A stretch of DNA of 64,000 nt. Source: Patescibacteria group bacterium (lineage in GTDB: Bacteria; Patescibacteriota; Microgenomatia; Levybacterales; UBA12049). Shown piece by piece: positions 1,800-62,443 of this stretch. Within the stretch, counting starts at the first letter, position 1. Every line of letters starts with the position of its first letter. The stretch covers positions 23,141-87,140 of the forward strand of contig JBBTXS010000012.1 of NCBI GenBank assembly GCA_038062115.1. The letters run 5' to 3'. Below the pieces are notes generated by a model. It saw only the letters and a program-made list of their open reading frames with translations, did not search any database and had not been told where the DNA came from. The position numbers and the translations under genes were made by a program.

Positions 1800-3362
1800 A
1801 TGAAATATATAGGATATTGCAGGAAATCAACGGATGAAAAAGATAGACAGATTTTATCTATAGAAGCTCAAATAGCAGAGCTGACCGAATTTGCTAGACG
1901 CGAAGGTCTGGAAATTTCAGAATTTATTACAGAGGCAAAGACAGCAAAAATTCCAGGCCGTGAACAATTTGACAAACTCTTAATGCTGCTTGAAAAAGGA
2001 AAAGCTCAAGGAATTATCTCATGGCATCCCGACCGCTTAGCTCGTAATTCCATTGATGGCGGAAAGATTATTTACTTACTCGATACAGGAAAACTTCTTG
2101 ACCTAAAATTCCCATCACATTGGTTTGAGAATACACCGCAAGGGAAATTTATGCTTAGTATCGCTTTTAGTCAGTCGAAATATTATATTGACAATCTTTC
2201 CGAGAATGTTAAAAGAGGTTTAAGACAAAAATTAAGAAACGGTGTTTATCCCGGAAAAGCATTTTGGGGATATGCGAACAATAAAGAGTTGGGAATTATT
2301 GAGGTTGATGTGACAGAGTCCAAGATTATCAAAAAGGCTTTCCAGTTATTTGCTAGTGGCGGAAAAACTTTTATGGATATTTCCCGCTTCTTACATAAGC
2401 ATGGACTTACCCAAAAAAACGGCAAAGATCTAAAAATAGACAGGATAAAAGAAATTCTTTCAAATAAATTTTACATTGGCATCATCTTTTACGCAGGAGA
2501 ATACTACGAAGGAAAACATAAGTTGTTTATTTCGAAAACATTATTTGACCGAGCGCAAAAACAGTTCAAATTCACTGAAAGATCAAAGCCCAATAACAAA
2601 CACAATTTATCTTTCTTAGGACTGTTGAAATGCGGTGAATGTAAAGCAAGTATTACCGGAGAAATGAAAATAAAATATTACAAAGAAACCCAAAGAAAAG
2701 CTGAATATATTTATTACAGTTGTACTAAAAAACTGGGAAACTGTTTGCAGAAACCAATTCCAGAGCCGGAACTGGAATTACAAATAAGAAAAGCGGTTAG
2801 CGATGTGGCCTTGCCCGAAAGTTGGGCTAGCGATTGGTATAAATGGCTTGAAAGAGATGAGATAACAGAAAAACAATTGAAAGAAGAAAATTTACAGAAA
2901 TTAAATGAAGAAATAAAAGCTCTGGATCAAAAATTAAATTTTCTTTTAGATAGTTACTTGGACAGCGTTATTGATGCCGATATCTACAAGAAAAAGAAAA
3001 ATGAATTATTCGAGGAGAAACTAAGAAAACAAGAAGAAATTACCAAGTTGCAGACCAATGGTTCAAGTTGGCTCGAACCTTTCAAGGAATTCGTAGATAG
3101 CGCATTACAATGCGGAAAAATTGCGCGCGAAAAAAAAACAAAAGAAGAATTGGCATTCTTCGCAAAAACTGTCGGCTCGAACTTCTTTTTAACTGATCGG
3201 CAACTTTTCCCATCCTACAATTTGGGCTTTGCAGACCTCCAAACGCAATCTCTCGTCCAAAGTCCCCAAACGCAGGCTTTTGAAAAGTCCCAATGTGAGC
3301 GGGATACGGGAGTCGAACCCGTCTTTTCAGATTGGAAATCTGACGTTGAACCGCTCAACTAA
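1800..3362 (+). CDS. Large serine recombinase (resolvase/invertase N-terminal domain, recombinase domain and zinc ribbon). The ORF has no stop until it has read through the right inverted repeat and tRNA-Gly, so the true 3' end is uncertain.
   Basis: The N-terminus YCRKSTDEKDRQILSIEAQ...RLARN is a serine-recombinase catalytic motif. The Cys cluster CGECKASITGEMK...YYSCTKKLGNC is a zinc ribbon typical of large serine recombinases, followed by a coiled-coil region. Confidence 0.8.
   Translation: MKYIGYCRKSTDEKDRQILSIEAQIAELTEFARREGLEISEFITEAKTAKIPGREQFDKLLMLLEKGKAQGIISWHPDRLARNSIDGGKIIYLLDTGKLLDLKFPSHWFENTPQGKFMLSIAFSQSKYYIDNLSENVKRGLRQKLRNGVYPGKAFWGYANNKELGIIEVDVTESKIIKKAFQLFASGGKTFMDISRFLHKHGLTQKNGKDLKIDRIKEILSNKFYIGIIFYAGEYYEGKHKLFISKTLFDRAQKQFKFTERSKPNNKHNLSFLGLLKCGECKASITGEMKIKYYKETQRKAEYIYYSCTKKLGNCLQKPIPEPELELQIRKAVSDVALPESWASDWYKWLERDEITEKQLKEENLQKLNEEIKALDQKLNFLLDSYLDSVIDADIYKKKKNELFEEKLRKQEEITKLQTNGSSWLEPFKEFVDSALQCGKIAREKKTKEELAFFAKTVGSNFFLTDRQLFPSYNLGFADLQTQSLVQSPQTQAFEKSQCERDTGVEPVFSDWKSDVEPLN
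3198..3300. repeat. Right arm of the 103-bp perfect inverted repeat
   Basis: It is the exact reverse complement of 1649..1751 and overlaps the 3' end of tRNA-Gly by about 3 bp. Confidence 0.9.
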
Positions 3363-3368
3363 TCCCGC
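3298..3368 (-). tRNA. tRNA-Gly (anticodon UCC)
   Basis: Manual fold of the reverse complement gives acceptor GCGGGAT/ATCCCGC, D-stem GTTG/CAAC, anticodon stem TCAGA/TCTGA with loop TTTCCAA, and T-stem ACGGG/CCCGT with loop TTCGACT. Confidence 0.85.
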
Positions 3369-3521
3369 GCATATTGATTTTATCAAATGCGATCAGTATT
3401 GTGCAAATGGAAAATTTAAGCTAAAATAACTGTGAACGTCGGGGTGGCGGAATTGGAGCGGAGTCCCGACGAGTCGGGACGAGCTCGCTTGCGAGCGTAG
3501 CGCGAGACAAGCGTGGAAGAC

Positions 3522-3605
3522 GCCGCGGTGGTGGAATGGTAGACACGAAGGCCTTAAGAGCCTTTGTTCCAAAAGAACGTGAGAGTTCGACTCTCTCCCG
3601 CGGCA
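3522..3605 (+). tRNA. tRNA-Leu (anticodon UAA), class II with a long variable arm
   Basis: Acceptor GCCGCGG/CCGCGGC, anticodon stem AAGGC/GCCTT with loop CTTAAGA, variable-arm hairpin GTTC-CAAAA-GAAC, T-stem GAGAG/CTCTC with loop TTCGACT. Confidence 0.8.
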
Positions 3606-3607
3606 CT

Positions 3608-3681
3608 CGGGGAGTAGCTCAGTTGGCTAGAGCGCACGGTTTGGGACCGTGAGGTCGGAGGTTCAAGTCCTCTCTCCCCGA
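3608..3681 (+). tRNA. tRNA-Pro (anticodon UGG)
   Basis: Acceptor CGGGGAG/CTCCCCG, D-stem GCTC/GAGC, anticodon stem CACGG/CCGTG with loop TTTGGGA, T-stem GGAGG/CCTCT with loop TTCAAGT. Confidence 0.85.
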
Positions 3682-11362: not shown

Positions 11363-12718
11363 ATGATTACCATAAGACGTCGCCTAATCATTTGGCTTAT
11401 AAGAGCATATATTAGGAAAATGGGCAAAACGATCCTTATTTATTTTGCAGTTGGACTGTTGGTATTTTTTGTACTTCGCTTGTCTTTTAAACACATTCTT
11501 CCTAAATATCACTCTTATCAGAAAGAAACTATAGGTGTAGTTGGAGCTTACACAACCGATGATTTGCCTCCAAGTATTTTATATAAAATTTCCAGAGGAC
11601 TAACAACTATTGCCCAAGATGGGACTGTAAAACCAGACGTTGCTAGATATTGGAAACTAGAAAATGATGGTAAAACTTATATTTTTTACCTAAAAACCAA
11701 TATTTATTTTAGCGATGGTAAAGAACTAACTTCTGACCTTATCCATTACGATTTCTCCGACGTAATTACAGATCGGCCAGACAAATATACAATTATATTT
11801 AAATTAAAAGGAACATATTCTCCTTTTTTAGTCACAGTTGCAAGGCCTATTTTTAAAAAAGGCTTTATTGGATTAGGAGGTTATAAAATTAAAAATATAG
11901 AATTAAATGGAAATTTTGTCAAATCAATGGAATTAGTTTCTACCAATAACAAAAAGAGTTTGATTTATGAGTTTTATCCAACTGTTGCTTCGTCAAAAAC
12001 TGCTTTTGTTCTTTCGGACGTATCAAAGATTATTGACATGCCAGATGTAAACTTTAAAAAAACTTCTTTTTACAACTTTAAAAATGCTAACGTTAGTAAA
12101 AACATAAATTATAAACAGTTGGTTACACTATTTTACAATACAGAAGACAAAAACCTTTCTTCCAAAACCTTAAGAGAAGCTCTGTACTATACGATTCCTA
12201 ATCATTTTGATGAGGGCTTGAGGCATTTTGGTCCTTTCTCTCCTTTTTCTTTTGCGGTACAGGAGGGGTTGTACACATATCAACAAGACATATCACATGC
12301 ACAGCTACTTCTTGATAAATTTAAAAATGCAAGCCTTGGTGCAAAGCTTTCTTTAACAATAGATACTCTACCTCAATATAATGGTGTTGCCGAAACAATT
12401 TCAAAAATCTGGAACAGTCTTGAAATAGAAACTAGGATACAAATTACGGATAAGGTGCCTTCAAATTTCCAAGTTTTTCTTGGAGAATTTAGCCTGCCGC
12501 CAGATCCAGACCAATATGTTTTGTGGCATTCAGATCAAATAAACAATATTACACATTATAGTAATCTTCGCATAGATAAGTTATTGGAAGATGGAAGACA
12601 AACAAATGATATCGAAAAACGTAAAAAAATTTATGCTGATTTTCAAAAATACATTTTGTCCGATCCGCCAGCATCGTTCTTGTTTTTCCCATACACCTAT
12701 GACGTTGCCAGAAAATAG
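11363..12718 (+). CDS. Membrane-anchored solute-binding protein, SBP family 5-like (OppA/DppA fold), shortened
   Basis: N-terminal TM anchor. DGTVKPDVARYWKLENDGKTYIFYLKTNIYFSDGKELTSDLIHYDFS resembles the SBP_bac_5 core. Confidence 0.45.
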   Translation: MITIRRRLIIWLIRAYIRKMGKTILIYFAVGLLVFFVLRLSFKHILPKYHSYQKETIGVVGAYTTDDLPPSILYKISRGLTTIAQDGTVKPDVARYWKLENDGKTYIFYLKTNIYFSDGKELTSDLIHYDFSDVITDRPDKYTIIFKLKGTYSPFLVTVARPIFKKGFIGLGGYKIKNIELNGNFVKSMELVSTNNKKSLIYEFYPTVASSKTAFVLSDVSKIIDMPDVNFKKTSFYNFKNANVSKNINYKQLVTLFYNTEDKNLSSKTLREALYYTIPNHFDEGLRHFGPFSPFSFAVQEGLYTYQQDISHAQLLLDKFKNASLGAKLSLTIDTLPQYNGVAETISKIWNSLEIETRIQITDKVPSNFQVFLGEFSLPPDPDQYVLWHSDQINNITHYSNLRIDKLLEDGRQTNDIEKRKKIYADFQKYILSDPPASFLFFPYTYDVARK

Positions 12719-12721
12719 ACA

Positions 12722-14107
12722 TTATTTGTATAGAATATTTGATCTCAACTTGCGGTGATAGAAAATTGCAAATCTGTGAGCTTCGTCGCGGATTCGCTGT
12801 GTAAGATGGAGGACTGGCGAGTCCTTTGGAAGGAAAATTTCGACAAAGCTTGCTCTGTCGTCATTCTGAGGAGCGTTAACGACTCCAGAATCTCTCCTTT
12901 CAGTGTAATTAAAGGAGACTCTGGACGCGCTCGTTCCTCGCTTGCCAGAATGACGGTTTAAGCTTAGGGGAATAATAATTGTCTCCTCCCTTTTTGCAAG
13001 TCCTATAACTGGAATTTGCATACCCTTTTCTTTTAAAGCCATAAGAGCAGAGGATACTTGACCTTTTCCCCCATCAACTATTATTAAATCGGGCATTGGC
13101 CATTCTTTGTGATTGAGCCTTCGTCCTATAACTTCTTTAATCATTGCAAAATCGTTTGGAACAGGATAAAAATTTTTAATTTTAAACCTTCTATATAAAG
13201 ATGAATCTTTGTCTCCATTAATAAAAACTACCATAGATCCAGTAGCAGATTTTCCTTGGATATTAGATATATCGTAGCATTCTATTCTTTCTAATTTTTC
13301 AGCATGTATTCCATTTTGGGAGAGTAAGCATCGTAGACTAGACAACTGATTATCTAGTGTGTCTTGAGTTAAGTTTGGGTTAACTTTATGATCAAATTGA
13401 TTGTAGGCTGGATTTGTAATTAGTTTTATGGCATCTAGTTTTTTTTGAATTAGAGCTGCTTTTTCAAATTCTTCAAGTTTACTTAAATTATCTCTTTCTT
13501 TTTTAAGATCTTTAACAACTTTTTTTGTTTTGCCATTTAAGAAAGTAATAAGATGATTAATGTTTGATCTATATTCCTTATTGCCAACAACCTCTGGACA
13601 TGGGCAAAGTCCTAAATGGTAGTATAGGCAAAGCTTTTTTTGGTGATTTATGGTGGATTGAAACGGAAAAATTTTTCGTACAGTTTTTAAGACTAAGCGT
13701 AATGCCTGAGCGTTTGGAAATGGGCCAAAATATATAGATTTTTTGTCCTGAGCTTTCCTTGCAATTAAAACTTTAGGATATTTATCTACAGTAATTCGTA
13801 TAAGGGGATATGCTTTTCCATCAGTAAGCCGTACATTATATTTTGGCTTATATTTTTTAATGTAATTTGCTTCTAACAATAGTGCTTCTATTTCTGAGGC
13901 AACTGAAATTGTTTTTATTTTTTTGATCTTTGAAATCAAAATTTTTGTCTTTGGGCTAAGCAAGTTTAGATTAGTAAAATAAGAACTAACCCGCTTTTTA
14001 AGACTTTTTGCTTTTCCAACGTACAAGACTTCATTGTTTTGGTTTAAAAATAGATATACCCCAGGCCCTTGGGATAATGATCGATAAAAGTATGCTGATA
14101 GTAACAA
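12722..14107 (-). CDS. uvrC: Excinuclease ABC subunit C (UvrC), short form; carries an in-frame palindromic-element insertion near the C-terminus
   Basis: GIY-YIG domain (GPGVYLFLNQNNEVLYVGKAKSLKKRVSSYF), UvrBC motif, LAKREE...RIRDEAHRFAIFYHRK. An insert of about 35 aa (RHSGKRGTSASRVSFNYTERRDSGVVNAPQNDDRASF) lies between LAKREE and EIFLP. Confidence 0.85.
   Translation of the reverse strand: MLLSAYFYRSLSQGPGVYLFLNQNNEVLYVGKAKSLKKRVSSYFTNLNLLSPKTKILISKIKKIKTISVASEIEALLLEANYIKKYKPKYNVRLTDGKAYPLIRITVDKYPKVLIARKAQDKKSIYFGPFPNAQALRLVLKTVRKIFPFQSTINHQKKLCLYYHLGLCPCPEVVGNKEYRSNINHLITFLNGKTKKVVKDLKKERDNLSKLEEFEKAALIQKKLDAIKLITNPAYNQFDHKVNPNLTQDTLDNQLSSLRCLLSQNGIHAEKLERIECYDISNIQGKSATGSMVVFINGDKDSSLYRRFKIKNFYPVPNDFAMIKEVIGRRLNHKEWPMPDLIIVDGGKGQVSSALMALKEKGMQIPVIGLAKREETIIIPLSLNRHSGKRGTSASRVSFNYTERRDSGVVNAPQNDDRASFVEIFLPKDSPVLHLTQRIRDEAHRFAIFYHRKLRSNILYK
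12859..12955. repeat. Palindromic element, family A (termini GTCATTCTGAG...CAGAATGAC), in frame inside uvrC
   Basis: Terminal inverted repeat gtcattctg/cagaatgac, internal imperfect palindrome tccagaatctctccttt/aaaggagactctgga, GC-rich relative to the flanks. Confidence 0.75.
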
Positions 14108-15924: not shown

Positions 15925-18804
15925 CTATAATACTTTTCTCAAAAACTGGCCTGTATAAGAGCCTTTGTTTTGAGCAATTTCCCAAGGTGTTCCAATAGCA
16001 ACTACTTTCCCACCTTTTTCTCCCCCATCAGGTCCTAAGTCTATTATAAAATCTCCGTTTTTAATTACATCTAAATTATGTTCTATTACAATAACTGTGT
16101 TGCCAGAATCAACTAAGCGCCTAAGCACCATTAGCAGTTTTTCAAGATCGGCGAAATGTAAGCCTGTGGTTGGTTCATCAAGCAAATACAATGAACCTTG
16201 TCCTCTTTTGGATAATTCATGTGAAAGTTTTACTCTTTGAGCCTCTCCTCCAGATAAAGTTGGTGCTGGTTGGCCTAATTTTATGTAAGAGAGCCCTACA
16301 TCATTGAGCGTTTGTAATTTGTGAGAAAGAGCAGCGTAAAATGAGAAAAATTGCAAAGCCTCTTGTACGCTCATACCAAGAATTTCTGCTATGTTTTTCC
16401 CCTTAAATAAAACCTCCAACGCTTCCCTATTGTATTGTAGTCCGTTGCATTCCTCACAAGTTATATAAACATCTGGTAAAAATTGCATCTCGATTTTTAT
16501 TTGCCCTTCTCCTTCACACGTCTCACATCTCCCACCTTTTACATTAAAAGAAAACCTTCCTGGTTTATAACCCTTTGCTCTTGCTTCTTTTGTTTGAGCA
16601 AAGAGATCGCGAATATAAGTAAATGCGCCAGTATAGGTTGCTGGGTTACTTCTTGGTGTTCTACCAATAGGAGATTGATCGATTAAATAAACCCTTCTTA
16701 TATTTTCGTATCCAACAAGCGCTTCATGAATTCCAGGTGTCTGCCTATGATATGGATTTTGTAATTGCATTAGGGCATGATATAAGATATCATTTATTAA
16801 AGTTGATTTTCCCGATCCTGAAACTCCAGTTACTACTACAAATTTATTTAGAGGGAAGCTTACGTCTATATTTTTTAAGTTGTGCTCCTTTGCTCCTTTT
16901 ACAAGGATACTCTTTGTGTAAAGAGTATCCTTGTTGTTATCTTTAATTATTTTTATTTCTCTTTTTCCAGACAAATACTGTCCAGTGAGTGAATTTGGGT
17001 CTTTTTTTATATCCTCAATAGTTCCCTTGGCAACAATTTTCCCACCATTAAAACCCGCGCCCGGTCCAAAATCTATTAAAAAGTCTGCCTGTTCCATTGT
17101 TTCCTTATCGTGTTCGACAACCAAGACTGTATTCCCAAGGTCCCTTAACTTCTTGAGAGTCTCAATTAGCTTTTTATTATCTTTTTGGTGGAGCCCAATT
17201 GATGGCTCGTCCAAAACATAAAGTACTCCAGTTAAGCCACTTCCTATTTGGCTGGCTAGGCGAATTCTTTGTGCTTCTCCTCCTGCAAGAGTTTGTGCGC
17301 CTCGTCCCAAAGTAAGATAATCAAGGCCAACATCTATTAAAAACGAAAGTCTAAGTTTTATTTCTTTAACAATAACTTTACTTATTTCACTTTCCCGAAA
17401 ACTTAAAATATTTTGAATATTATTTATAAACTTTAGGCAATCAATAATAGACATATTAGATACGTCAGCTATCGATTTGTTATTTATGGTAACTGCCAGT
17501 GCTTCTTTTTTGAGTCGATTACCACTACAAGAGTCGCATATTTCGTAGCGCATAAATCTCTCTATTCTTGTTTTTAAAAACATTGATTCTGTTGTACTAT
17601 GCCTTTGCTTTAGCTCCCAAAGTATTCCGCGAAACTGTTCGTAAATTTCTGTTTGTCTTCCCCACCTGTTGTTTCCAATCACACGATATTTTTTGTCTCC
17701 AGTTCCTTCTAGCAATAAATCTTTTTTTGAGTTACTGATTTCAGATAGTCTAATGTTAATCGGGATATCATTCTCTTTGCAGAAAGCAATAAAAGTTCTT
17801 GAGAACCAAGTATCGTTTTCAAAAAGATTGGAAAAAGGCAGAATTCCTCCTTCGGAAATTGTGAGGTTGTTGTTAAAGACTAAATCTTTATCAACTGTTA
17901 ATATAGTTCCTAGTCCATTACATCTTGGACACGCGCCGTGGGGCGTATTGAAAGAAAATAGACGAGGTTCAATTTCTGCAATAGATATGCCGCAAACCGG
18001 ACAAGCAAACTTTTCCGAAAAAAACTCGTCTTGCATTTTTTTGGGTTTTTGAGGCATAGAAAATCCTAGATCTTTAATAATCGATACTAGCAACTCCCCA
18101 TTACCAAACCTAAGTCCAGTTTCTACATCTTGGGAAATTCTTGATTTGTCGGTTTCGTTAGATAAAACGATCTCGTCTATCACAAGTTCGATTGTGTGTT
18201 TGTTTGTTTTTATAAGAACAAAATCTTCGTTTAAAGAAAAAATTTCTTTATCTATTCTTACTTTTTTGTATCCACGTTTTTTTAGATCAAAAAAAAGTTC
18301 CAAATATTCACCTTTTCTGTCTTTCACAATAGGAGCTAATATTAAAATTTTTATTTTTTGTACAGAAGAAGTTTTTAAAAGACCAAAAATAGAACTTGTT
18401 ATTTGTTCTTTGGATTGATGAGATATTTCCCTATTACAATTTGGGCAATGGGGATGACCTACTCTTGCAAACAAGAGCCTAAAATAATCATAAATTTCTG
18501 TAACAGTACCAACAGTGCTTCTTGGATTATGAGAAGTTGACTTTTGATCAATTGATATTGCTGGAGAAAGGCCTTCGATTAAATCAACATCGGGTTTTTT
18601 CATTACCCCTAAGAATTGTCTTGCATACGAAGACAAGCTTTCGACGTAGCGCCTCTGTCCTTCGGCATAAATTGTGTCAAAGGCAAGAGAAGACTTGCCG
18701 CTCCCAGATAAACCAGTAAAAACTACAAGTTTATTTTTGGGAATTTCAAGATTGATGTTTTTTAAATTATGCTCTCGTGCGCCTCTAATGACGATACTAT
18801 CCAT
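15925..18804 (-). CDS. uvrA: Excinuclease ABC subunit A (UvrA)
   Basis: 959 aa, two ABC ATPase modules (GLSGSGKSSLAFDT..., GVSGSGKSTLIND...) and zinc-finger Cys pairs. Confidence 0.95.
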   Translation of the reverse strand: MDSIVIRGAREHNLKNINLEIPKNKLVVFTGLSGSGKSSLAFDTIYAEGQRRYVESLSSYARQFLGVMKKPDVDLIEGLSPAISIDQKSTSHNPRSTVGTVTEIYDYFRLLFARVGHPHCPNCNREISHQSKEQITSSIFGLLKTSSVQKIKILILAPIVKDRKGEYLELFFDLKKRGYKKVRIDKEIFSLNEDFVLIKTNKHTIELVIDEIVLSNETDKSRISQDVETGLRFGNGELLVSIIKDLGFSMPQKPKKMQDEFFSEKFACPVCGISIAEIEPRLFSFNTPHGACPRCNGLGTILTVDKDLVFNNNLTISEGGILPFSNLFENDTWFSRTFIAFCKENDIPINIRLSEISNSKKDLLLEGTGDKKYRVIGNNRWGRQTEIYEQFRGILWELKQRHSTTESMFLKTRIERFMRYEICDSCSGNRLKKEALAVTINNKSIADVSNMSIIDCLKFINNIQNILSFRESEISKVIVKEIKLRLSFLIDVGLDYLTLGRGAQTLAGGEAQRIRLASQIGSGLTGVLYVLDEPSIGLHQKDNKKLIETLKKLRDLGNTVLVVEHDKETMEQADFLIDFGPGAGFNGGKIVAKGTIEDIKKDPNSLTGQYLSGKREIKIIKDNNKDTLYTKSILVKGAKEHNLKNIDVSFPLNKFVVVTGVSGSGKSTLINDILYHALMQLQNPYHRQTPGIHEALVGYENIRRVYLIDQSPIGRTPRSNPATYTGAFTYIRDLFAQTKEARAKGYKPGRFSFNVKGGRCETCEGEGQIKIEMQFLPDVYITCEECNGLQYNREALEVLFKGKNIAEILGMSVQEALQFFSFYAALSHKLQTLNDVGLSYIKLGQPAPTLSGGEAQRVKLSHELSKRGQGSLYLLDEPTTGLHFADLEKLLMVLRRLVDSGNTVIVIEHNLDVIKNGDFIIDLGPDGGEKGGKVVAIGTPWEIAQNKGSYTGQFLRKVL

Positions 18805-24390: not shown

Positions 24391-24586
24391 TGTCCTGTCT
24401 AATATTGTTAAACAAGAATAGAAATGTCCGCTTTTTTGTCATTCCGAGTGCAGTGAAACGGAGTCGAGGAATCTGATCCCTCCACTCCGCTATCGCTACG
24501 GTCGGGATGACAAACCATGTAACTTATTGTGTCTCTTAAATAGGACATTTCTATTCTTGTCTGACATGTCCTGTCTAATATTTGTT
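24391..24586. repeat. Composite palindromic element: family A core (24436..24513) nested inside an 18-bp outer inverted repeat and a ~16-bp direct repeat
   Basis: Core termini ttgtcattccgag...cgggatgacaa. Outer inverted repeat acaagaatagaaatgtcc/ggacatttctattcttgt. Direct repeat tgtcctgtctaatatt on both sides. Confidence 0.75.
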
Positions 24587-25764: not shown

Positions 25765-25833
25765 TGTTTATTAATTATAGCTACTTTCGAACTTTTTTTC
25801 ACTATGGCATTTATGCAGATCAAAACAAAACAG

Positions 25834-25965
25834 TGTAGCCGTTCAGGGTTTGACAAAACATCTGTCATCTCGAGCCTAAGCGAGAGATCTCCTTGAGATT
25901 TCTCACCTACTTCGTAGCTTCGAAATGACAATTCTTTGACAACTCCTGAACGGCTACAAAACAGT
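25834..25965. repeat. Composite palindromic element: family A core (25863..25931, tgtcatctcgag...cgaaatgacaa) with a 14-bp perfect outer inverted repeat
   Basis: Outer inverted repeat tgtagccgttcagg/cctgaacggctaca. The core resembles the other family A copies. Confidence 0.7.
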
Positions 25966-26159
25966 TTATTGATTTGCTTTTATGATCTATACTAGTATAA
26001 CTTCGTCAGGAAGATCGCAGTTATTTTGATGATTTAAAACACTTGATAGTATTTAATTAAATAAATAATATTCTTAAAGATTACAATGTACAAGATAATA
26101 AGATAAAACACGAATTAATAATCTAATAATCCATTTTTGTTCTAAAAAGAATTTATACG

Positions 26160-29472: not shown

Positions 29473-29500
29473 GAGTCTGTTTGAAAAGTGTTACACAATC

Positions 29501-29595
29501 TGTCATTGCGATCAGTCAGGCTTAGCCTGACTGAGAAGCAATCTCTCATCAATGGGATTGCCACGTCGCTCGTTCCTCGCTCCTCGCAATGACAC
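29501..29595. repeat. Palindromic element, family A (tgtcattgcga...ctcgcaatgacac)
   Basis: Termini plus internal palindromes tcagtcaggcttagcctgactga and gcaatc...gattgc. Intergenic between cysS and the glycoside-hydrolase-like gene. Confidence 0.8.
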
Positions 29596-40210: not shown

Positions 40211-42196
40211 ATGAATTTTAAGCTTGTATCAAGTTTTAAACCAACCGGCGATCAGCCCCAAGCTATAGAAAAGTTGGTTAAAAATCTTAATAAAAATATA
40301 AGATACCAAGTGCTTTTAGGTGTTACAGGGAGCGGAAAGACTTTTACTATGGCAAACGTTATAAACATCGTCCAAAGACCAACGCTTGTAATTTCGCACA
40401 ATAAAACTTTGGCTGCCCAGCTATATCAAGAATTTAGGGACTTTTTTCCGCATAATGCAGTTTGCTACTTTGTTTCATACTACGATTATTATCAACCAGA
40501 AGCCTACATTCCCCAAAGCGATACTTATATAGAAAAGGAAGCAGAAATAAACGAAGAAATAGATAAATTGAGACTTTCGGCAACGGCAAACCTTTTAACT
40601 AGAAATGATGTTATAGTTGTTGCGTCAGTCTCGTGCATTTATAATTTGGGCTCCCCTATTGAATATGGAAAATTCATTTTGGAATTAAGAACTGGGGTTT
40701 CCATCAATCAAAAGTCAGTTTTGCTTCGATTAACAGATTTGCAATACGAAAGAAACGAGTATAATTTTAAGAGAGGAACTTTTAGAGTACGTGGCGAATC
40801 AATTGATTTATTTCCCAGCTATTCAGATAACGGAATTAGAATAGAAATATTTAACGGAAAAGTCAAACAACTTTTAGAGTTTAGTCCATTAACTGGAGAA
40901 ACAATATCCTCATTAAATGCCGTAGTAATATACCCTGCAAAACACTACATGACTGATCCAAAATCGTACAACAGCGTTTTTGAGCAGATTCGAAACGACC
41001 TGAAACTACAAGTTGAAAAATTTAAAAAACGAGGAAAATTTTTAGAAGCGCAAAGAATAGAAGACAGAACAAATTTCGATCTTGAGATGATTAGGGAAAC
41101 AGGTTATGTAAATGGAATCGAAAATTATTCTCGTTATTTTGACGGCAGAAATATAGGTGAGGCACCATATACACTTTTAGATTATTTCCGAGAATGCTCA
41201 AAAGATTTTTTGTGTATGATCGATGAATCGCACATGACAGTACCCCAACTAAGAGGCATGTACAATGGCGATCGCGCGCGAAAAGAAACATTAATTGAGT
41301 ATGGCTTTAGACTTCCATCTAGCTTAGACAACCGACCTCTTCGTTATATTGAGCTACTTGGAAGACTTAATCAAATAGTATTTGTTAGTGCAACACCTAG
41401 TGACTACGAAATTTCTTTATCTTTAGAAAAAAATGCGGTTGTTGAACAATTGGTTCGTCCAACCGGTCTTGTTGATCCAGAAGTTGTTGTGCGGCCAACT
41501 CAAGGCCAAATTCTAGACTTAATTTCCGAAATAGAAAAAAGAGTATCAAAAAAACAAAGAGTCTTAGTAACAACTCTTACAAAGCGTATGGCAGAAGAAT
41601 TATCATCGTATTTAGAAGAAAAAGGAATTAAAGTATCGTATCTTCATTCTGATATTCAAACTCTTAATCGTCAAGATGTGCTAGATAAACTAAGAAGTGG
41701 AGATTATGATGTTATTGTTGGAATTAACCTACTTCGCGAGGGTTTAGATTTACCCGAAGTTTCTCTTGTTGCAATTTTAGATGCCGACAAAGAAGGATTC
41801 TTGCGTAGCAAGACTTCTTTAGTACAAACAATGGGGAGAGCTGCTAGGCACATAGACTCAATGGTAATCATGTATGCAGATATTGTTACAAAATCAATGG
41901 AGTTTGCAATAAAAGAAGTAGAACGTCGCAGAAAAATTCAGATCAAATACAATAAAGAACACAACATAACGCCCCTTGGGATTAAAAAATCAATCCGCGC
42001 AAAATTGATTGAGCAGGATAATACAGAACGCGCAGATTTCCTGCAAGTTTTAGAAAGAAAAGAGATTTTATTGCCAGATGAAAAAGAAGTTCTTATTAAA
42101 AAATTGAGAAAAGAAATGATTTATGCAGCAAGGGATCTCGACTTTGAGAAAGCTGCAATTTTAAGGGATAGAATAAGGCTTCTTAAAAACCGCTGA
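40211..42196 (+). CDS. uvrB: Excinuclease ABC subunit B (UvrB)
   Basis: Walker A GVTGSGKT, helicase motifs, and the C-terminal UVR domain (ILRDRIRLLK). Confidence 0.95.
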   Translation: MNFKLVSSFKPTGDQPQAIEKLVKNLNKNIRYQVLLGVTGSGKTFTMANVINIVQRPTLVISHNKTLAAQLYQEFRDFFPHNAVCYFVSYYDYYQPEAYIPQSDTYIEKEAEINEEIDKLRLSATANLLTRNDVIVVASVSCIYNLGSPIEYGKFILELRTGVSINQKSVLLRLTDLQYERNEYNFKRGTFRVRGESIDLFPSYSDNGIRIEIFNGKVKQLLEFSPLTGETISSLNAVVIYPAKHYMTDPKSYNSVFEQIRNDLKLQVEKFKKRGKFLEAQRIEDRTNFDLEMIRETGYVNGIENYSRYFDGRNIGEAPYTLLDYFRECSKDFLCMIDESHMTVPQLRGMYNGDRARKETLIEYGFRLPSSLDNRPLRYIELLGRLNQIVFVSATPSDYEISLSLEKNAVVEQLVRPTGLVDPEVVVRPTQGQILDLISEIEKRVSKKQRVLVTTLTKRMAEELSSYLEEKGIKVSYLHSDIQTLNRQDVLDKLRSGDYDVIVGINLLREGLDLPEVSLVAILDADKEGFLRSKTSLVQTMGRAARHIDSMVIMYADIVTKSMEFAIKEVERRRKIQIKYNKEHNITPLGIKKSIRAKLIEQDNTERADFLQVLERKEILLPDEKEVLIKKLRKEMIYAARDLDFEKAAILRDRIRLLKNR

Positions 42197-42857: not shown

Positions 42858-42965
42858 GCTGGGTCATAAATACCCATTTGTCATTCCGAGCGAGTGTAGC
42901 GAGTCGAGGAATCTCGTTGAAGGAGATTTCTCGGCAAGCTCGAAATGACAATTGTGACCCAGTCA
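42858..42965. repeat. Family A palindromic element with the extended terminal inverted repeat (c)tgggtcat...tgacccagtca; near-identical to 52151..52260
   Basis: Its core ttgtcattccgagcgagtgtagcgagtcgaggaatctcgttgaaggagatttctcggcaagctcgaaatgacaa differs by one base from the copy at 52.2 kb. Confidence 0.85.
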
Positions 42966-52150: not shown

Positions 52151-52260
52151 TGACTGGGACATAAATACTCATTTGTCATTCCGAGCGAGTGTAGCGAGTC
52201 GAGGAATCTCTTTGAAGGAGATTTCTCGGCAAGCTCGAAATGACAATTATGACCCAGTCA
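52151..52260. repeat. Family A palindromic element (near-identical to 42858..42965), between atpA and atpH
   Basis: Same core with one mismatch, extended terminal repeat tgactggg.../...cccagtca, and a flanking direct repeat atatgagatta. Confidence 0.85.
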
Positions 52261-57313: not shown

Positions 57314-57322
57314 AGCTCAATA

Positions 57323-57412
57323 TGTCATTGCGAGCGAACTTTAGTTCGCGCGGCAATCTCTTTTGATGGGGATTGCTTCGTCTCAGGCTTCGCCTGATCC
57401 TCGCAATGACAC
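57323..57412. repeat. Family A palindromic element between dnaE and gatB
   Basis: tgtcattgcgag...ctcgcaatgacac with internal palindromes gcgaactttagttcgc, gcaatc...gattgc and tcaggcttcgcctga. Confidence 0.8.
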
Positions 57413-58857
57413 TATAATAATTGCTTTTTAATCTCTCTTTTTACTATATTAGGATCTATACTTTTTAAAATTTTTCTTAATACCATTCCTACCAAAAACA
57501 TAATCACATTTGCTTTACCTTTTTTATAATCGCTTATTGCTCTTGGATTGTCAAGAATTACTTGTTTTACTGTTTTTTCAAGGTACTTCTGATCAACAGT
57601 CGTTTTTTGCGTTGACGTAATAATACTTCGAACTAACTGCGCTGGCATTGTTTTTTCTAAATCTACTTTTTTATTGATAATCCAGTTAGCAATAACCTTT
57701 GTATTTATAGATTCCTGATTCTTAATTCTTAATTCACGATTCACTTTTACCGCTTCTTCGAAATATTCTGCAATCCCTCTATCTTTTGTTAATATTTCAC
57801 TGTCGTAATCTGACAAACCATAAATTTTTGTGAATCGTTGAAACTTTTGATCGGGTAGTTCTGTCATTTGAAATTTGAAATTTGAAATTTGTAATTCCAC
57901 CCACCGAATGGGTGGTATATCTGGCTCTGGGAAGTATCTATAATCCATTGTTTCTTCTTTTACTCTTTGAGACACTGTAATTTGTTTTTTGCTATCCCAA
58001 CCCCTTGTTTCTTGGATTGGAGTTTTTCCTGATTCTAAAATCTTTTTCTGCCTTTCTATCTCGTAATTTATTGCCTTTTCGACAAAACGGAAAGAATTAA
58101 TATTTTTTACTTCGACTTTATAGGTAGGCAACCTCTCACTGTCATTGCGAGCGAAGCGAAGCAATCCCTCTACTTTTGAGATTGCTTCGTCGCCGCGTCT
58201 GACGCGGCTTCCTCGCAATGACATTTCAGATAGTGAAATGTTAGGCTCCAACCGCATCTGCCCTCTCTCCATGTCTGCGTCTGACACGTCTAAGTATCTA
58301 ACGATTTGCTGGAGTTTTTTTAGATATTCAACGACCTCTGTTGCAGATTCAAAATCAGGTTCAGTAACTATTTCAACAAGCGGAACTCCTGATCGATTAA
58401 AATCTATCAGCGTTACTTTTTCCCCTTTTACAATAGAATGAATTAGCTTACCAGTATCTTCCTCCATGTGAACCCGACGTATCCGAATTATTTTTTTACC
58501 CTCACCTCGAAGGTGTTTATCCGTTTCACCTTCCAGGTGTACATATCCACCGACTGCAAATGGTTGATCGTATTGTGAAATCTGGTATCCCTTAGGAAGG
58601 TCTGGGTAAAAATAATTTTTCCGATCAAACTTTGAAAATAGAGGAATCTTGCAATTTAATGCAAGCCCAATCATCACACACCACTCAATTGCTTTTTTGT
58701 TTGGAACTGGTAGGGCTCCAGGGAGCCCTAAGCAGACTGGACAAACGTGAGTATTTGGGTCTTTACCAAAATAATCCACAGAACAGCCACAAAACATTTT
58801 AGATTTTGTTTTTAACTCAACATGAACCTCAAGACCTATGACTGGTTTGTACCCCAT
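57412..58857 (-). CDS. gatB: Asp/Glu-tRNA(Asn/Gln) amidotransferase subunit B, with an in-frame palindromic-element insertion
   Basis: MGYKPVIGLEVHVEL..., a zinc-binding CGCS, and KNINSF. An extra ~28 aa (EMSLRGSRVRRGDEAISKVEGLLRFARNDSE) sits in the loop before KVEVKNINSF. Confidence 0.9.
   Translation of the reverse strand: MGYKPVIGLEVHVELKTKSKMFCGCSVDYFGKDPNTHVCPVCLGLPGALPVPNKKAIEWCVMIGLALNCKIPLFSKFDRKNYFYPDLPKGYQISQYDQPFAVGGYVHLEGETDKHLRGEGKKIIRIRRVHMEEDTGKLIHSIVKGEKVTLIDFNRSGVPLVEIVTEPDFESATEVVEYLKKLQQIVRYLDVSDADMERGQMRLEPNISLSEMSLRGSRVRRGDEAISKVEGLLRFARNDSERLPTYKVEVKNINSFRFVEKAINYEIERQKKILESGKTPIQETRGWDSKKQITVSQRVKEETMDYRYFPEPDIPPIRWVELQISNFKFQMTELPDQKFQRFTKIYGLSDYDSEILTKDRGIAEYFEEAVKVNRELRIKNQESINTKVIANWIINKKVDLEKTMPAQLVRSIITSTQKTTVDQKYLEKTVKQVILDNPRAISDYKKGKANVIMFLVGMVLRKILKSIDPNIVKREIKKQLL
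58140..58224. repeat. Family A palindromic element inserted in frame within gatB
   Basis: tgtcattgcgagcgaagcgaagcaatc...gattgcttcg...ctcgcaatgacat. The reading frame stays open through the element. Confidence 0.8.
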
Positions 58858-59596
58858 TACTTCTCCTTTCCTTAACAAAATTTTGAACTTCTTGATAACT
58901 TTTCTGCCATGGCCAATAAAGCGAACCTGATAGACCATATACAGGAATACAAAAGTTAGGTCGATCTCTATTTATTGATGTCATTTCCGAAACAACAATA
59001 TCTACCGTTTCTTGTACAGTCGTACTTTTAAGATCAACACATTCTGAGAAACGGATAGAACTTAGTATTTGATCAAGTACAACAATGCCTTTAAATAATT
59101 GTGGACCTACTCTATTTTTTGCTAATTCTTCTACGGGGTTTCTTTTAGCATAAGGCTTATTTTCAACAAGAATAACACACAGATTCTCTCGGGGGATCAC
59201 GATCCTATTGAAGTTATACTTAAGATCATGCGTCGCGCTCAAAATAGCAGTTTCAAAAGATTTCTCCAACGTTACATCTGTATTAGAAAGGGATATACTA
59301 GTCTTATTTACGGGATCTACCCAGTTTCTGCTAAAAAGTATCCCTTTTTTTCTTGCAAAACTCTCAGCCACTAATCCATGGAGAAGAATTCCCCGTAGTC
59401 TATCTACTGGTAAATTTGTGAGGCCATTATTGTTATGAATATCCCCTAAGCGGATAAAGCCATGCTTAAATAACAACGGCTCAGTGTGGATGTCTACAAC
59501 TTTATTTATTGCTGCTTCTTGTGCCATTTCAATAAAGCTGGATGAATGTTCAGGACTTACTTCGACATTCATAGTATAGGTTTTTGTTTGTGCCAC
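58829..59596 (-). CDS. Hypothetical protein located between gatA and gatB
   Basis: Intact 255-aa ORF within the gat cluster. It has a weak GDIH motif but no complete metallophosphoesterase signature. Confidence 0.35.
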   Translation of the reverse strand: MAQTKTYTMNVEVSPEHSSSFIEMAQEAAINKVVDIHTEPLLFKHGFIRLGDIHNNNGLTNLPVDRLRGILLHGLVAESFARKKGILFSRNWVDPVNKTSISLSNTDVTLEKSFETAILSATHDLKYNFNRIVIPRENLCVILVENKPYAKRNPVEELAKNRVGPQLFKGIVVLDQILSSIRFSECVDLKSTTVQETVDIVVSEMTSINRDRPNFCIPVYGLSGSLYWPWQKSYQEVQNFVKERRSNGVQTSHRS

Positions 59597-61023
59597 TCTG
59601 TTTCTTGTTCGTATTTATAAGCAACGTTTAGTATTAACGCTTCCGAAAACTGGGGGCCGATGATTTGCATGCCAATGGGTAGACCTTGTTTTGAAAATCC
59701 GCAGGGAACACTGATGCCAGGAAGCCCTGCGATAGAGGACGGTTCTACCAATACATCTGCCATTTCGCCAAACATAGGATGATTTTTGCTAGAGCCAAGA
59801 GGTAACGCTGTTGATGGACTTGTTGGCCCTATAATTACATCTACTCCGCCAGTTGACGGATTAAATGCTTTTTCAAAGTCTTGAATTATAAGTGTTCTAA
59901 CTTTTTGTGCTTTATTGTAATATTGGTCATAGTACCCAGCAGACAATGTATATGTTCCAAGCATTATTCTCCGTTTTGCCTCATCGCCAAAGTAAGATCG
60001 ATCATTACCATACCTAATCCCATCGTATCGCGCAAGATTTGAAGAGACTTCCGAACGCTGAAGAATCGTATATACTGCGATTGCATATTTTGGTGGAAAA
60101 AGTTTAATAGTTTTTATTATTGCACCCTTTTTTTCTAAAACTTTTAAAGCATTATGTACTCCATTTTGAACTTCTTGATCAACACCCTCGAAATAATCAT
60201 TAGAAACTCCTATCTTGACTTTCTCAATCGATCGATTGAGATTTTTGGTATAGTATGGTACTTTTTTGGGAGAAGTAGTGGCATCAAAAGAATCTTTTCC
60301 TGCTAATACTTGTAAAATTAATGCACTATCTTCTACAGTTTTTGTAATTGGGCCAGGAGAATCAAGAGAAGACGCCATTGCGATAAGGCCATATCTACTT
60401 ACCCTTCCATAAGTTGGCTTAAGACCTACAACTCCACACCAAGATGCTGGTTGTCGAATAGAACCAGCAGTTTCTGATCCAATTCCAGCAATTGCTTGAT
60501 TAGCTGCAACGCTTGCCGCAGCGCCGCCTGATGATCCACCAGGTAAAAAATTCGTATTCCAAGGATTTTTTGTAGTTCCATAATCAGAAGTTTCGGTTGA
60601 TGATCCATGCGCCCACGCATCCATGTTGGTTTTTCCAAGCATTATCATCCCAGCATCTTTGAGTCGGTTTACAACTGTAGCATCATATGGTGGAATAAAA
60701 TCATCAAGTACCTTACTTGACGCAGTTGTTCGAATACCTTTTGTACAAAAATTATCTTTTATGCTAATAGGGATGCCAAGAAGGGGAAGAGTATTTAATT
60801 GCTCAATTGTTAAATTGTTAAATTGTTTGTCTGCCATTTTTGCAGCTCCGATTGCTTCTTTTTCGCAAACTGTAATAAACGCATTTATCTTTGAGTCGAG
60901 TTTTTTAATTTGGTCTAGGCAGTCTTCGGTAAGTTCGAAAGATGAAAATTTTTTATTCCTTAATCCTTCTTGTGCTTGTTTAATTGTTAGTTGATTTAGT
61001 TTCATAGTTTCTCTCAATGTCAT
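59569..61023 (-). CDS. gatA: Glutamyl-tRNA(Gln) amidotransferase subunit A (amidase signature family)
   Basis: GGSSGGAAASVAA (amidase signature) with the Ser-cisSer-Lys triad context. Confidence 0.9.
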   Translation of the reverse strand: MTLRETMKLNQLTIKQAQEGLRNKKFSSFELTEDCLDQIKKLDSKINAFITVCEKEAIGAAKMADKQFNNLTIEQLNTLPLLGIPISIKDNFCTKGIRTTASSKVLDDFIPPYDATVVNRLKDAGMIMLGKTNMDAWAHGSSTETSDYGTTKNPWNTNFLPGGSSGGAAASVAANQAIAGIGSETAGSIRQPASWCGVVGLKPTYGRVSRYGLIAMASSLDSPGPITKTVEDSALILQVLAGKDSFDATTSPKKVPYYTKNLNRSIEKVKIGVSNDYFEGVDQEVQNGVHNALKVLEKKGAIIKTIKLFPPKYAIAVYTILQRSEVSSNLARYDGIRYGNDRSYFGDEAKRRIMLGTYTLSAGYYDQYYNKAQKVRTLIIQDFEKAFNPSTGGVDVIIGPTSPSTALPLGSSKNHPMFGEMADVLVEPSSIAGLPGISVPCGFSKQGLPIGMQIIGPQFSEALILNVAYKYEQETEWHKQKPIL

Positions 61024-61037
61024 GCTGAATTTATTTC

Positions 61038-61089
61038 AGCATCTATTTTCTGTCATGAGTAAGATTCTGAAACAAGTTCAGGATGACAC
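61038..61089. repeat. Family B palindromic element between gatA and gatC
   Basis: catgctgaatttatttcagcatc hairpin plus gattctgaaacaagttcaggatgacac. Confidence 0.7.
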
Positions 61090-61093
61090 AGAA

Positions 61094-61375
61094 CTATCCA
61101 TCTAGTATTGTTTTTACTTTAAATAAACCATTATGTACAGACTTTGCATTTTTTAAAACTTCTTCTTGAGAAAGCGAGGGTTTTGCTTCATCTTCTCTTG
61201 TAACATTTTCCAGGCCTGTTACTTGACTTGTAGGTTCAATATTTTCTGTAGCAACTTCTTTTAGTTTGTTTATATACTGTAAGATTGAAAAGAGTTGTTT
61301 TTGAAATTTTTCCTTTTTATCTTCTTTTATCTGTAGATTCGCAAGTTTTGCAATATGGGAAACATCTATTTTCAT
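61094..61375 (-). CDS. gatC: Glutamyl-tRNA(Gln) amidotransferase subunit C
   Basis: ~93 aa: MKIDVSHIAKLANLQIKEDKKEKF...PTSQVTGLENVTREDE... resembles GatC. The ORF could extend to 61540, but only by crossing a palindromic intergenic region. Confidence 0.7.
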   Translation of the reverse strand: MKIDVSHIAKLANLQIKEDKKEKFQKQLFSILQYINKLKEVATENIEPTSQVTGLENVTREDEAKPSLSQEEVLKNAKSVHNGLFKVKTILDG

Positions 61376-61491
61376 AAATTTGCCTTTCCCCCGAGTTTTG
61401 TTAATTAATGATGCAAAGGATCTCTTTTCTAGGAGATCCCTCTGCCTGCTGACCTCGGGATGAGTCTGAAATAACATTCCAGACTCAGTTA

Positions 61492-62358
61492 TTATACCGA
61501 AATACCCAAGCGTTTCGCAATTGTCTCGTGGGCTTGCCATTCAAGGGAGTCGTTAAGAGAGGAGAGGTTGATAGATTTTTTGTACTTTCTCTTAAGAGCA
61601 AGTTTTATTAGGTAATCTGCAAAATGGGGATTTTTTGGGAGGATTGGGCCGTGTAAATAGCTTCCAAAACTGTTTTTATAAACTACTCCTTCTGTTTTAT
61701 CTTCTCCATTATTCCCAAAACCCTTAAGAACTTTACCCAAAGGTTTTATCTCTTTGCCAAGATAAGTTCTACCCCCATGATTCTCGAACCCAACCAGATA
61801 ATCCTTTTTGTCATTGCGAGGAGTTCTGAGCTTGTCGAAGGACGACGAAGCAATCCCATTGATTTGAGATTGCTTCACTTCGTTCGTAATGACATCTGTT
61901 TTGATGACAACATTTCCAATAAGTCTCGGTACTTTTTCTCCCCGGTTTTCTGTACATAAATCTAGGATACATAGTCCATCGATAATATTTCCGTCTGCTT
62001 CTTTGTAGTATTTGCCTAAAAACTGATAAGCGCCGCAAATATAAAGGCCTGTAACCCCATCCTCTATAATCTCTTTTAGCGCTTTTACCTTTTCTTTGCT
62101 AAAATCATGGGAAACGATTTTTTGCTGCGTATCTTGTGCTCCGCCCATAAATAGAAAATCACAAGATCTTAAATCTTGAATCTTAAATCCTAAATCTAAA
62201 TGTTTTACCTTAGTCTCAATCTTTCGCCATTCACATCGCTTTTGAAGACAAATAATATTACCTCTATCGCCATAGGTACTCATTAACTCTGGATACAACC
62301 AACCAATAACCAACTTATAATTCATACACTTATTGTCATCCCGAGCGAAGGGATGCAC
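61492..62358 (-). CDS. gatD: GatD-like glutamine amidotransferase (CobB/CobQ-type GATase partner of MurT), with an in-frame palindromic-element insertion
   Basis: It is adjacent to murT, has a GATase-like Cys context (LYICGAYQFLG), and ends in HGP. An inserted ~29 aa (DVITNEVKQSQINGIASSSFDKLRTPRNDKKD) is encoded by 61809..61895. Confidence 0.7.
   Translation of the reverse strand: MHPFARDDNKCMNYKLVIGWLYPELMSTYGDRGNIICLQKRCEWRKIETKVKHLDLGFKIQDLRSCDFLFMGGAQDTQQKIVSHDFSKEKVKALKEIIEDGVTGLYICGAYQFLGKYYKEADGNIIDGLCILDLCTENRGEKVPRLIGNVVIKTDVITNEVKQSQINGIASSSFDKLRTPRNDKKDYLVGFENHGGRTYLGKEIKPLGKVLKGFGNNGEDKTEGVVYKNSFGSYLHGPILPKNPHFADYLIKLALKRKYKKSINLSSLNDSLEWQAHETIAKRLGISV
61809..61895. repeat. Family A palindromic element inserted in frame within gatD
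   Basis: tgtcattgcgag...gaagcaatcccattgatttgagattgcttc...cgtaatgacat. Confidence 0.8.
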
Positions 62359-62443
62359 CAGACGGTGCGTCCCGAAGTCGAGGGATCTCCTGCAATTGCG
62401 ATGAAAGAGATTTCTCTCAGGCTTCGCCTGATCGAAATGACAA
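62333..62443. repeat. Family A palindromic element (111 bp) between murT and gatD
   Basis: ttgtcatcccgag...cgaaatgacaa. It shares the module tctcaggcttcgcctgatc with the copy at 57.3 kb and has an internal palindrome gggatgcaccagacggtgcgtccc. Confidence 0.8.

Follow-up and report, generated by a model that had tools for sequence, protein, structure and literature searches.

A palindromic repeat in frame within uvrC of a groundwater Patescibacteria genome, probably imported by replacement of the 3' end of the gene

Rickettsia palindromic elements (RPEs) are palindromic repeats that are translated within housekeeping proteins (Ogata et al. 2000, as cited in PMC10969869). [quoted passage not shown] Here we describe a 95-nt palindromic repeat that lies in frame in uvrC, within a 64-kb stretch of a groundwater Patescibacteria genome (the window, to which coordinates refer unless another locus is named). 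The element belongs to a repeat family with many copies in the window. Its site is empty in the closest orthologue, it is part of a mosaic patch at the 3' end of uvrC, and more distant orthologues share its terminus variant at the same site and in the same phase. Our results are most consistent with one old insertion, a translated loop, and import into this genome by replacement of the 3' end of uvrC. We give this joint explanation a probability of roughly 0.7.

The element consists of two inverted repeats, one nested in the other (Table 1). It reads GTCATTCTG...CAGAATGAC and measures 97 nt (12859-12955) with the flanking C/G pair. This pattern had one match in the window and none in 100 shuffled sequences. 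A first-pass annotation of the same DNA had described an element with these termini, in frame in uvrC, and its peptide equals our translation. On the minus strand, translation across the element gives ...GLAKREETIIIPLSLN-RHSGKRGTSASRVSFNYTERRDSGVVNAPQND-DRASFVEIFLPKDSPVLHLTQRIRDEAHRFA..., in frame between the GLAKREE and RDEAHRF motifs. The outer stem, including the flanking C/G, is a perfect 10 bp. In the inner stem, CCAGAATCTC / GAGACTCTGG, 15 of 16 positions are paired; at the remaining one, the mismatched bases form a G.U wobble on the mRNA (minus) strand. Folding of either strand gives -40 kcal/mol (z = -5.3 and -4.8), and 0 of 200 shuffled sequences were equally stable.

The gene that contains the element encodes a UvrC protein with both nuclease domains. 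The window also encodes the cognate UvrA (15925-18804) and UvrB (40211-42196). Pfam recognizes an N-terminal GIY-YIG nuclease domain (PF01541, 1.4e-10, residues 16-91) and the RNase H-like domain (UvrC_RNaseH_dom, PF08459, 2.9e-46) in the open reading frame (ORF), and in a comparison with the PDB the product matches the solved UvrC chains 2nrr, 2nrt and 8b0q. Its Asp, Asp and His motifs (YDISN, VDGGKGQ and RDEAHRF) align with Thermotoga maritima UvrC (2nrr). From the literature on 2NRT, we take RDEAHRF to contain the His that is catalytic in the RNase H-like 5'-incision nuclease. In an AlphaFold model of the protein in its public annotation (P0001), the RNase H-like domain is confident (predicted local distance difference test [pLDDT] score 80-92), and the insert (residues 357-391 in P0001 numbering) is unstructured (pLDDT <50), between strands 349-353 and 394-398. 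The insert is thus predicted to sit at the tip of a beta-hairpin as a disordered loop.

Independent assemblies of Hainich groundwater samples yielded the identical protein on at least six contigs, so the mosaic structure of uvrC described below is not an assembly chimera. Because the domains and motifs are intact, the fold is confident, and the same protein recurs on at least six contigs, the gene looks functional and the allele stable. Judged from sequence and model, the filled UvrC is most likely still functional. The first-pass annotation had also remarked that this UvrC lacks the usual C-terminal helix-hairpin-helix (HhH) domain, and we agree: Pfam gave no HhH match in the product, which stops 15 residues past RDEAHRF (the 2nrt chain runs ~55 residues further). 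This is a clade-wide trait that is unrelated to the element, as all 120 of the 120 closest homologues are short UvrC proteins (355-473 aa).

The public annotation of uvrC (434 aa) starts at 14024-14026 with a TTG codon (Leu if internal), which cuts away the GIY motif (GVYLF, residues 16-20). A start at the TTG at 14107 brings this motif back and gives an overlap of 77 nt with the upstream transglutaminase-like gene. The possible extended 5' region of uvrC is 14027-14107.

We found that most UvrC proteins have no insert at this site. The distance from GLAK to RDEAHRF is 78 aa in the window UvrC, compared with 39 aa in its closest orthologue and in 92 of the 108 homologues with both motifs. This empty, 39-aa state is the norm even among very distant UvrC proteins. 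Measured as a loop, the segment has 43 residues in the window UvrC, 3 in T. maritima UvrC (2nrr) and 19 in Deinococcus radiodurans UvrC (8b0q). Over the N-terminal 352 residues, the closest homologue (P0002) shares 89% identity with the window UvrC, and its site is empty (GLAKKQETIITSDFKEAILP). Loci L001, L002 and L006 encode this empty site in full synteny; on L001 and L002, the contigs of P0002, the genes shared in order with the window are uvrA, the transglutaminase-like gene, uvrC, a convergent SBP_bac_5 gene, secG and cofD. The first-pass annotation had proposed an insertion relative to other UvrC orthologues. That neither the closest orthologue nor most other UvrC proteins have the element upholds this proposal; that inserts are present at the same site in scattered distant orthologues does not. 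The presence of the insert in some distant orthologues refutes a new insertion in the window genome, but not an origin from a mobile element.

The loop is a permissive hotspot that is naturally variable in length. Inserts of 5-47 aa occur in 16 of the 108 homologues. In a distant clade, an independent copy of the GCG-type variant of the family occupies the same loop in another phase (L331, 2181-2267; FIARGEAGKQS...LAMT). The same loop also holds a different GC-rich palindrome (L032, 3575-3763; -42 kcal/mol) and another type of insert peptide (SLSLRERARVR, in P0029 and P0034).

Element-like inserts were also seen elsewhere. UvrC homologues of the clade have more of them, in frame, at three other sites (e.g., LPNFPASPAGRPNLPN and SSEERSDESRSLSSRQART; alignment A2, columns 170-185, 330-340 and 390-430), and GatB homologues of Levybacteria have element-like peptides at several sites. 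In another Patescibacteria genome (L101, 3691-3793), a large membrane protein has a C-terminal tail (...SLRGSLATKQSPVSRNKSEIASLPSVARNDRQF) that is formed by a copy of the family.

We found that uvrC differs in origin from the rest of the gene in its last ~270 bp, where the element lies. Identity between the window and L001 is 90-94% over 7 kb, and their alignment breaks over 12717-12972, that is, over the element and a stretch that begins ~20-35 nt upstream of it and runs as far as the end of uvrC. In codon register, identity to L001 is 64.0% over the 111 nt downstream of the element, compared with 94.8% over an 888-nt background (Fisher p = 7.5e-19). Third positions differ from L001 at 20 of 37 codons downstream of the element and at 42 of 341 in the background. 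The G+C content at third codon positions (GC3) is 0.444 downstream of the element and 0.204 in the upstream part of uvrC. In window genes GC3 is 0.254 +/- 0.074 (565 windows of 45 codons), and 0.9% of these windows reach 0.444. The C-terminal 45 residues best match insert-bearing and otherwise distant homologues (P0029, 79%; P0058, 81%), compared with 63% for P0002. The C-terminus encoded by L001 resembles those of other close N-terminal relatives (P0003 and P0005), and therefore the window appears to be the recombinant. These results suggest that the 3' end of the window uvrC, with the element in it, was received from a GC-richer relative.

uvrC has another mosaic patch, without the element, at 13261-13396 (~135 nt), where identity to L001 is ~55% and that of the rest of the gene is ~95%. 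There the window matches P0003, P0005 and P0009, and L001 looks recombinant. Recombination among these lineages is therefore common. Since L001 looks like the odd one out in this patch, and since recombination can remove an insert as well as add one, the insertion might instead be ancestral and vertically inherited in the window genome, with the empty alleles of L001, L002 and L006 produced by precise deletion or by replacement with an empty allele. The same CTG-type insert at the same site in several lineages would also fit such a history. However, it does not account for the foreign GC3 downstream of the element, the L001 C-terminus matches P0003 and P0005, and the 39-aa state prevails even in very distant UvrC proteins. 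We regard vertical inheritance as rather unlikely.

Same-site, same-phase copies with the rare CTG termini were found in more distant orthologues. For P0006, P0013, P0024 and P0075 the evidence is from DNA; for P0017, P0044 and P0114 same-site inserts were judged from the peptide. The insert starts with (R/P)HS(G/E) in 9 of the 16 homologues with loop inserts. In L007, L206, L207 and L208, CGTCATTCTG(G/A) stands at one codon phase, a few codons past a conserved Pro. Most filled alleles are internally deleted: L007 retains only the left half of the element, L208 only the outer-left and inner-left repeats (33 nt), and L206 only the two outer repeats (33 nt), and in L207 the element is degenerate on the right. 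All four repeats are readable in the P0114 peptide. In the 1.39 Mb of loci examined, uvrC was the only gene with the CTG terminus variant. The shared site, phase and variant point to one ancestral insertion and not to several by different members of the family.

The filled alleles are scattered in a neighbor-joining tree of the N-terminal part of the protein, each beside an empty sister (filled/empty pairs P0001/P0002, P0024/P0005, P0006/P0012, P0114/P0007 and P0044/P0082); the filled P0075 lies in a distant clade of this tree. In the pair L208/L209, a divergent tract of ~60 nt (58% identity) lies beside the insert, with 81-95% identity downstream and ~71-75% upstream.

The decayed alleles argue against removal of the insert before the mature protein is made, whether as a mini-intron, by translational bypass, or in the manner of an intein. 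A stable and compact structure that interrupts a conserved domain could suggest such removal. Inteins have an N-terminal Cys or Ser and a C-terminal His-Asn that is followed by Cys, Ser or Thr. The insert begins R-H-S and ends N-D, followed by D, and has none of these junction residues. A search of the whole window against Rfam at gathering thresholds gave only tRNAs and noise, with no match to the element and none to group I or group II introns. At permissive thresholds, there was no convincing match in two stretches that hold sister copies (the uvrC copy lies outside them). In addition, every decayed derivative, down to 33 nt, is in frame, as predicted by translation and not by excision. We consider removal extremely improbable.

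It is also quite unlikely, in our view, that the structure itself is selected or selfish, with a hairpin that acts in mRNA or DNA (as a pause, stability or recombination signal) or an allele that spreads in a homing-like manner, with co-conversion of its flanks after cleavage of the empty site. Several observations would fit: the palindrome is intact in the window and its four repeats are still readable in P0114, the sole inner-stem mismatch is G.U on the transcribed strand, the distribution is patchy with empty sisters, and divergence tracts flank the insert in two independent pairs (the window with L001, and L208 with L209). On the other hand, four of the five filled alleles with DNA (L007, L206, L207 and L208) have lost at least half of the palindrome and are still in frame. 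No candidate nuclease is known, and the other recombination patch in uvrC is unrelated to the element. No T-run follows the element, hence it is not an intrinsic terminator, though a weak terminator-like hairpin adjoins it.

That neighboring hairpin, CGACAGAGCAAGCTTTGTCG then AAATTTTCCT, is at 12841-12860 on the minus strand, directly downstream of the element and within the coding part of uvrC; the count of such sites was one, compared with 0.4 expected by chance. Two further candidates were rejected. The X-X'-X-X' layout had suggested an attC-like or dif-like site, but the copies occur singly and have no GTTRRRY/RYYYAAC cores. CTGAGGAG resembles the CUGAUGA of hammerhead ribozymes but is absent from the family consensus.

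We found that the uvrC element is a member of a palindromic repeat family in the window. Copies were located first by terminus pattern and then by a search, with filters off, with a covariance model (R1) built from 9 window copies, including that in uvrC, and 25 copies of other phyla. The window contains 10 strong copies and one weak copy, each of 66-107 nt. The uvrC copy scored 42 bits (E = 8.6e-9, over 12858-12956), confirming that the extra residues are encoded by a family copy, as the first-pass annotation had it. Copies outside the training set scored 50.5 bits (52173-52246) and 48.5 bits (L331).

Alignments A1 and A3 reveal an architecture common to the copies. Their outer inverted repeat, (Y)GTCATT-NNN-GAG ... 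CTC-NNN-AATGAC(R), tested as (Y)GTCAT[TC]NNN ... NNN[AG]ATGAC(R), is combined with a nested inner inverted repeat that carries the same core (...NNNAATCTC, loop, GAGATTNNN...). The loop and the spacers are variable, and the spacers often form small side hairpins. In the two helices on alignment A3, 95.9% of cells are paired, compared with 29-47% when the partner is slid, and 8 pairs are changed on both sides. The inner core covaries with the outer repeat across the GCG, CCG and CTG subfamilies. Only the uvrC copy has CTG/CAG cores among the window copies; the others have GCG or CCG. Most window copies are intergenic. Three lie in ORFs (uvrC, gatB and the amidotransferase gene), where they are open in frame in three different phases.

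With eleven copies of the family in 64 kb, three of them in ORFs, and with a near-perfect hairpin in uvrC, recent transposition of a resident copy might be considered, and the first-pass annotation had implied such a local event. The evidence does not fit this. No other window copy has CTG/CAG termini, and the uvrC copy is among the lower-scoring of the ten strong copies (42 bits, compared with 50-64 for the best; three copies score 35-44). It lies in the foreign ~270-bp patch. There is no target-site duplication, as no consistent direct repeat adjoins the ten window copies, and the net gain of 117 nt in uvrC does not equal the length of the element (95-97 nt). Finally, Pfam identified no transposase among the ~60 ORFs of the window. 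We consider recent transposition into the uvrC of the window genome very unlikely.

Several features of the other copies were observed. Five copies are clustered in ~5 kb (57322-62443), in the dnaE-gatB-gatA-gatC-gatD-murT region, and the copy at 62333-62443 overlaps the 5' end of the amidotransferase ORF. A search for an empty site in gatB gave no gatB orthologue more than 67% identical. Stem mismatches that are C.A on the plus strand and G.U on the minus strand occur in several copies (12885-12924, 42878-42951, 52173-52246, 25862-25931 and 62333-62443), and the genes flanking these copies are on the minus strand, presumably the transcribed strand. Such mismatches could hint at structure at the RNA level or could simply reflect subfamily ancestry. 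The copies at 42870-42959 and 52165-52254 are nearly identical and have common flanking bases (ATACYCATTT ... ATTRTGACC), so that the duplicated unit may exceed the element proper. The copy at 25864-25929 is bracketed by a 50-nt inverted repeat (70% complementary, at 25808-25984) and thus lies within a larger palindrome. The sole recombinase in the window is a large serine recombinase (1800-3362; Resolvase, Recombinase and Zn_ribbon_recom domains). It adjoins a cluster of three tRNA genes (3298-3681), which may mark the boundary of an integrated element.

We found that the family does not avoid stop codons. The first-pass annotation had raised the possibility that the element is free of stops in all phases, through selection for coding compatibility. 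In uvrC, the copy has no stop in 3 of its 6 frames. In 125 copies of other phyla, a mean of 2.79 of 6 frames were open, and in dinucleotide shuffles the mean was 2.81; for the ten window copies the values were 2.30 and 2.45. Lengths in the family are uniform modulo 3 (44, 44 and 37 copies). Selection for coding compatibility of the element was therefore rejected, and the in-frame copies are survivors of selection on the host gene.

The family extends well beyond the window. We scanned for exact termini of its commonest (GCG-type) variant, GTCATTGCGAG-N45-75-CTCGCAATGAC. In species-representative genomes there were at least 120 loci (L086-L205), and the matches listed include Bradyrhizobium, Sphingomonas, Mucilaginibacter, Pedobacter, Flavobacterium, Chloroflexi, Planctomycetota, Microcoleus, Deltaproteobacteria, Patescibacteria and Berkelbacteria. 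The same termini occur at 120 or more loci in viral contigs of IMG/VR (L211-L330). The inner repeat, GAAGCAATC / GATTGCTTC, which is outside the search pattern, is conserved in almost all listed copies. Plasmid and phage records gave few matches, none of them annotated. Between paired copies 0.6-2.3 kb apart (L101, L110, L244 and L279) we found no transposase, only ordinary host or phage genes. Searches by concept and by sequence or peptide strings, including CGAAGCAATCC, found primers and unrelated papers but no paper on the repeat.

Based on these results we suggest the following history. The 95 nt are a still hairpin-forming and probably old copy of a non-autonomous family of four-repeat palindromes, in which an outer inverted repeat (GTCATT-NNN / NNN-AATGAC) encloses an inner repeat of the same core. 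It would have been inserted once, long ago, in the uvrC of a Levybacteria-like (Microgenomates) bacterium, at a site in the RNase H-like 5'-incision domain that follows strand ETIII and precedes the strand and helix with the catalytic His. There the element would simply be translated, into ~32 hydrophilic and disordered residues (39 extra residues with linkers) in a loop of variable length. Since then lineages would have inherited the filled allele and passed it to one another by homologous recombination, and internal deletions that kept the frame would have eroded it. The window genome probably gained the insert when ~270 bp at the 3' end of uvrC were replaced by sequence of a GC-richer relative, and not by transposition of a copy of its own. 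Frame compatibility would come from selection on uvrC, under which events that are stop-free and compatible in length survive, and is no design feature of the element.

Several points weigh against this history. Both the translation of the element and the activity of the UvrC are read from sequence. The second mosaic patch indicates frequent recombination, so that the direction of each event is arguable; the donor lineage of the patch at 12717-12990 was not found; and the comparison of the C-terminal patch rests on 45 aa. The same uvrC site might conceivably have been targeted independently; the left linkers of the filled alleles differ in length. Furthermore, the window copy keeps its near-perfect hairpin (10-bp outer stem, 15/16 inner stem) despite its presumed age, and a near-intact palindrome is unexpected if selection acts on the peptide alone. 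The intact hairpin could be due to a younger origin in the donor, to arms that evolved in concert, or to selection for the structure. A bolder proposal is that this is an undescribed, phage-carried repeat family of many phyla, that its hairpin is kept by selection or drive, and that the filled uvrC is not a neutral fossil but spreads in a homing-like manner with co-conversion, or has a hairpin that acts in mRNA. We regard this proposal as rather unlikely to be correct.

Our results indicate that translated palindromic repeats, best known from Rickettsia, may also shape essential proteins of Patescibacteria, among them UvrC, GatB and a GatD-like amidotransferase. Such inserts would make the proteins of small genomes longer and more diverse, would confuse annotation and alignment, and would point to permissive loops. 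The exchange of a filled allele by a short tract of homologous replacement, seen here at nucleotide resolution, is a possible transposase-free route for non-autonomous repeats. With termini found across phyla and in viruses, and with no Rfam entry or paper found, the repeat family merits a study of its own.

Table 1. Coordinates of the uvrC element, its host gene and the other family copies in the window
Feature	Position	Strand	Remarks
uvrC ORF	12722-14107	minus	461 codons from TTG at 14107; GIY-YIG and RNase H-like endonuclease domains, no (HhH)2
Palindromic repeat element, CTG-terminus variant, 95 nt	12860-12954		translated on the minus strand as residues 385-416, RHSGKRGTSASRVSFNYTERRDSGVVNAPQND
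Outer left repeat GTCATTCTG	12860-12868	plus	pairs with outer right repeat
Inner left repeat CCAGAATCTCTCCTTT	12885-12900	plus	same AGAAT core as outer repeats
Inner right repeat AAAGGAGACTCTGG	12911-12924	plus	from folding
Outer right repeat CAGAATGAC	12946-12954	plus	from folding
RDEAHRF motif	12770-12790	minus	intact, downstream of insert; aligned to IRDETHRFA of T. maritima UvrC
GLAKREETIII, final beta-strand before insert	12971-13003	minus	PDB alignment, AlphaFold
Putative recombinant patch, last ~270 bp of uvrC including element	12717-12990	minus	left breakpoint approximate, between 12973 and 12990
gatB copy	58141-58222 (R1: 58139-58224)		in gatB 57412-58938 (minus strand); in frame, other phase, read as SLRGSRVRRGDEAISKVEGLLRFARND; R1 64 bits
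Amidotransferase copy	61810-61893 (R1: 61808-61895)		in CobB/CobQ-like glutamine amidotransferase ORF 61492-62358 (minus strand); third phase; R1 59.6 bits
Intergenic copy	57322-57412		between dnaE and gatB; R1
Other R1 copies	24436-24513, 25862-25931, 29500-29595, 42878-42951, 52173-52246, 62333-62443
Weak copy	61017-61089		R1

The host protein can be compared with canonical UvrC (T. maritima 2NRT and Escherichia coli). Like these, the window UvrC has a GIY-YIG domain for 3' incision and an RNase H-like domain for 5' incision, with the D, D and H motifs. It differs in that the C-terminal (HhH)2 DNA-binding domain is missing and the hairpin loop is expanded by 39 residues.

The repeat family has likenesses to two classes of bacterial repeats. 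Like MITEs (ERIC, Correia/NEMIS, BOX and Nezha), it has terminal inverted repeats, a length under ~300 bp, no ORF of its own, and multiple dispersed copies, occasionally in frame within genes. Unlike MITEs, it has no visible target-site duplication (ten copies), and its exact GCG-type termini are spread over many phyla and viral contigs, more widely than is usual for a MITE family. In the window, no insertion sequence with the same ends was found. The family also resembles repetitive extragenic palindromic sequences (REP/REPIN; mobilized by RAYT, a Y1 HUH enzyme), which are hairpin repeats of tens of nucleotides, without target-site duplication, often paired or nested, and abundant. In contrast to REP/REPIN, its termini are GTCAT and not GTAG, and copies lie inside genes. 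Pfam found no Y1_Tnp/RAYT gene among the window ORFs.

The closest likeness appears to be to RPEs. Both are short, palindromic, non-autonomous and present in multiple copies, some in frame in housekeeping genes and others intergenic. Both would add a translated segment without destroying the host protein, surface-exposed in RPEs and in a predicted disordered loop here. In contrast to RPEs, the host belongs to Patescibacteria and not to Rickettsia, the element is 66-107 nt, and the family is read in at least three phases, with no family-wide frame and no avoidance of stop codons. In addition, its termini recur across phyla, and the filled allele appears to have been moved by homologous replacement, probably into the window genome. 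We therefore describe the uvrC element as RPE-like without filing it as an RPE: the host sets it apart, and the likeness that we propose is one of architecture and in-frame placement, not of sequence.

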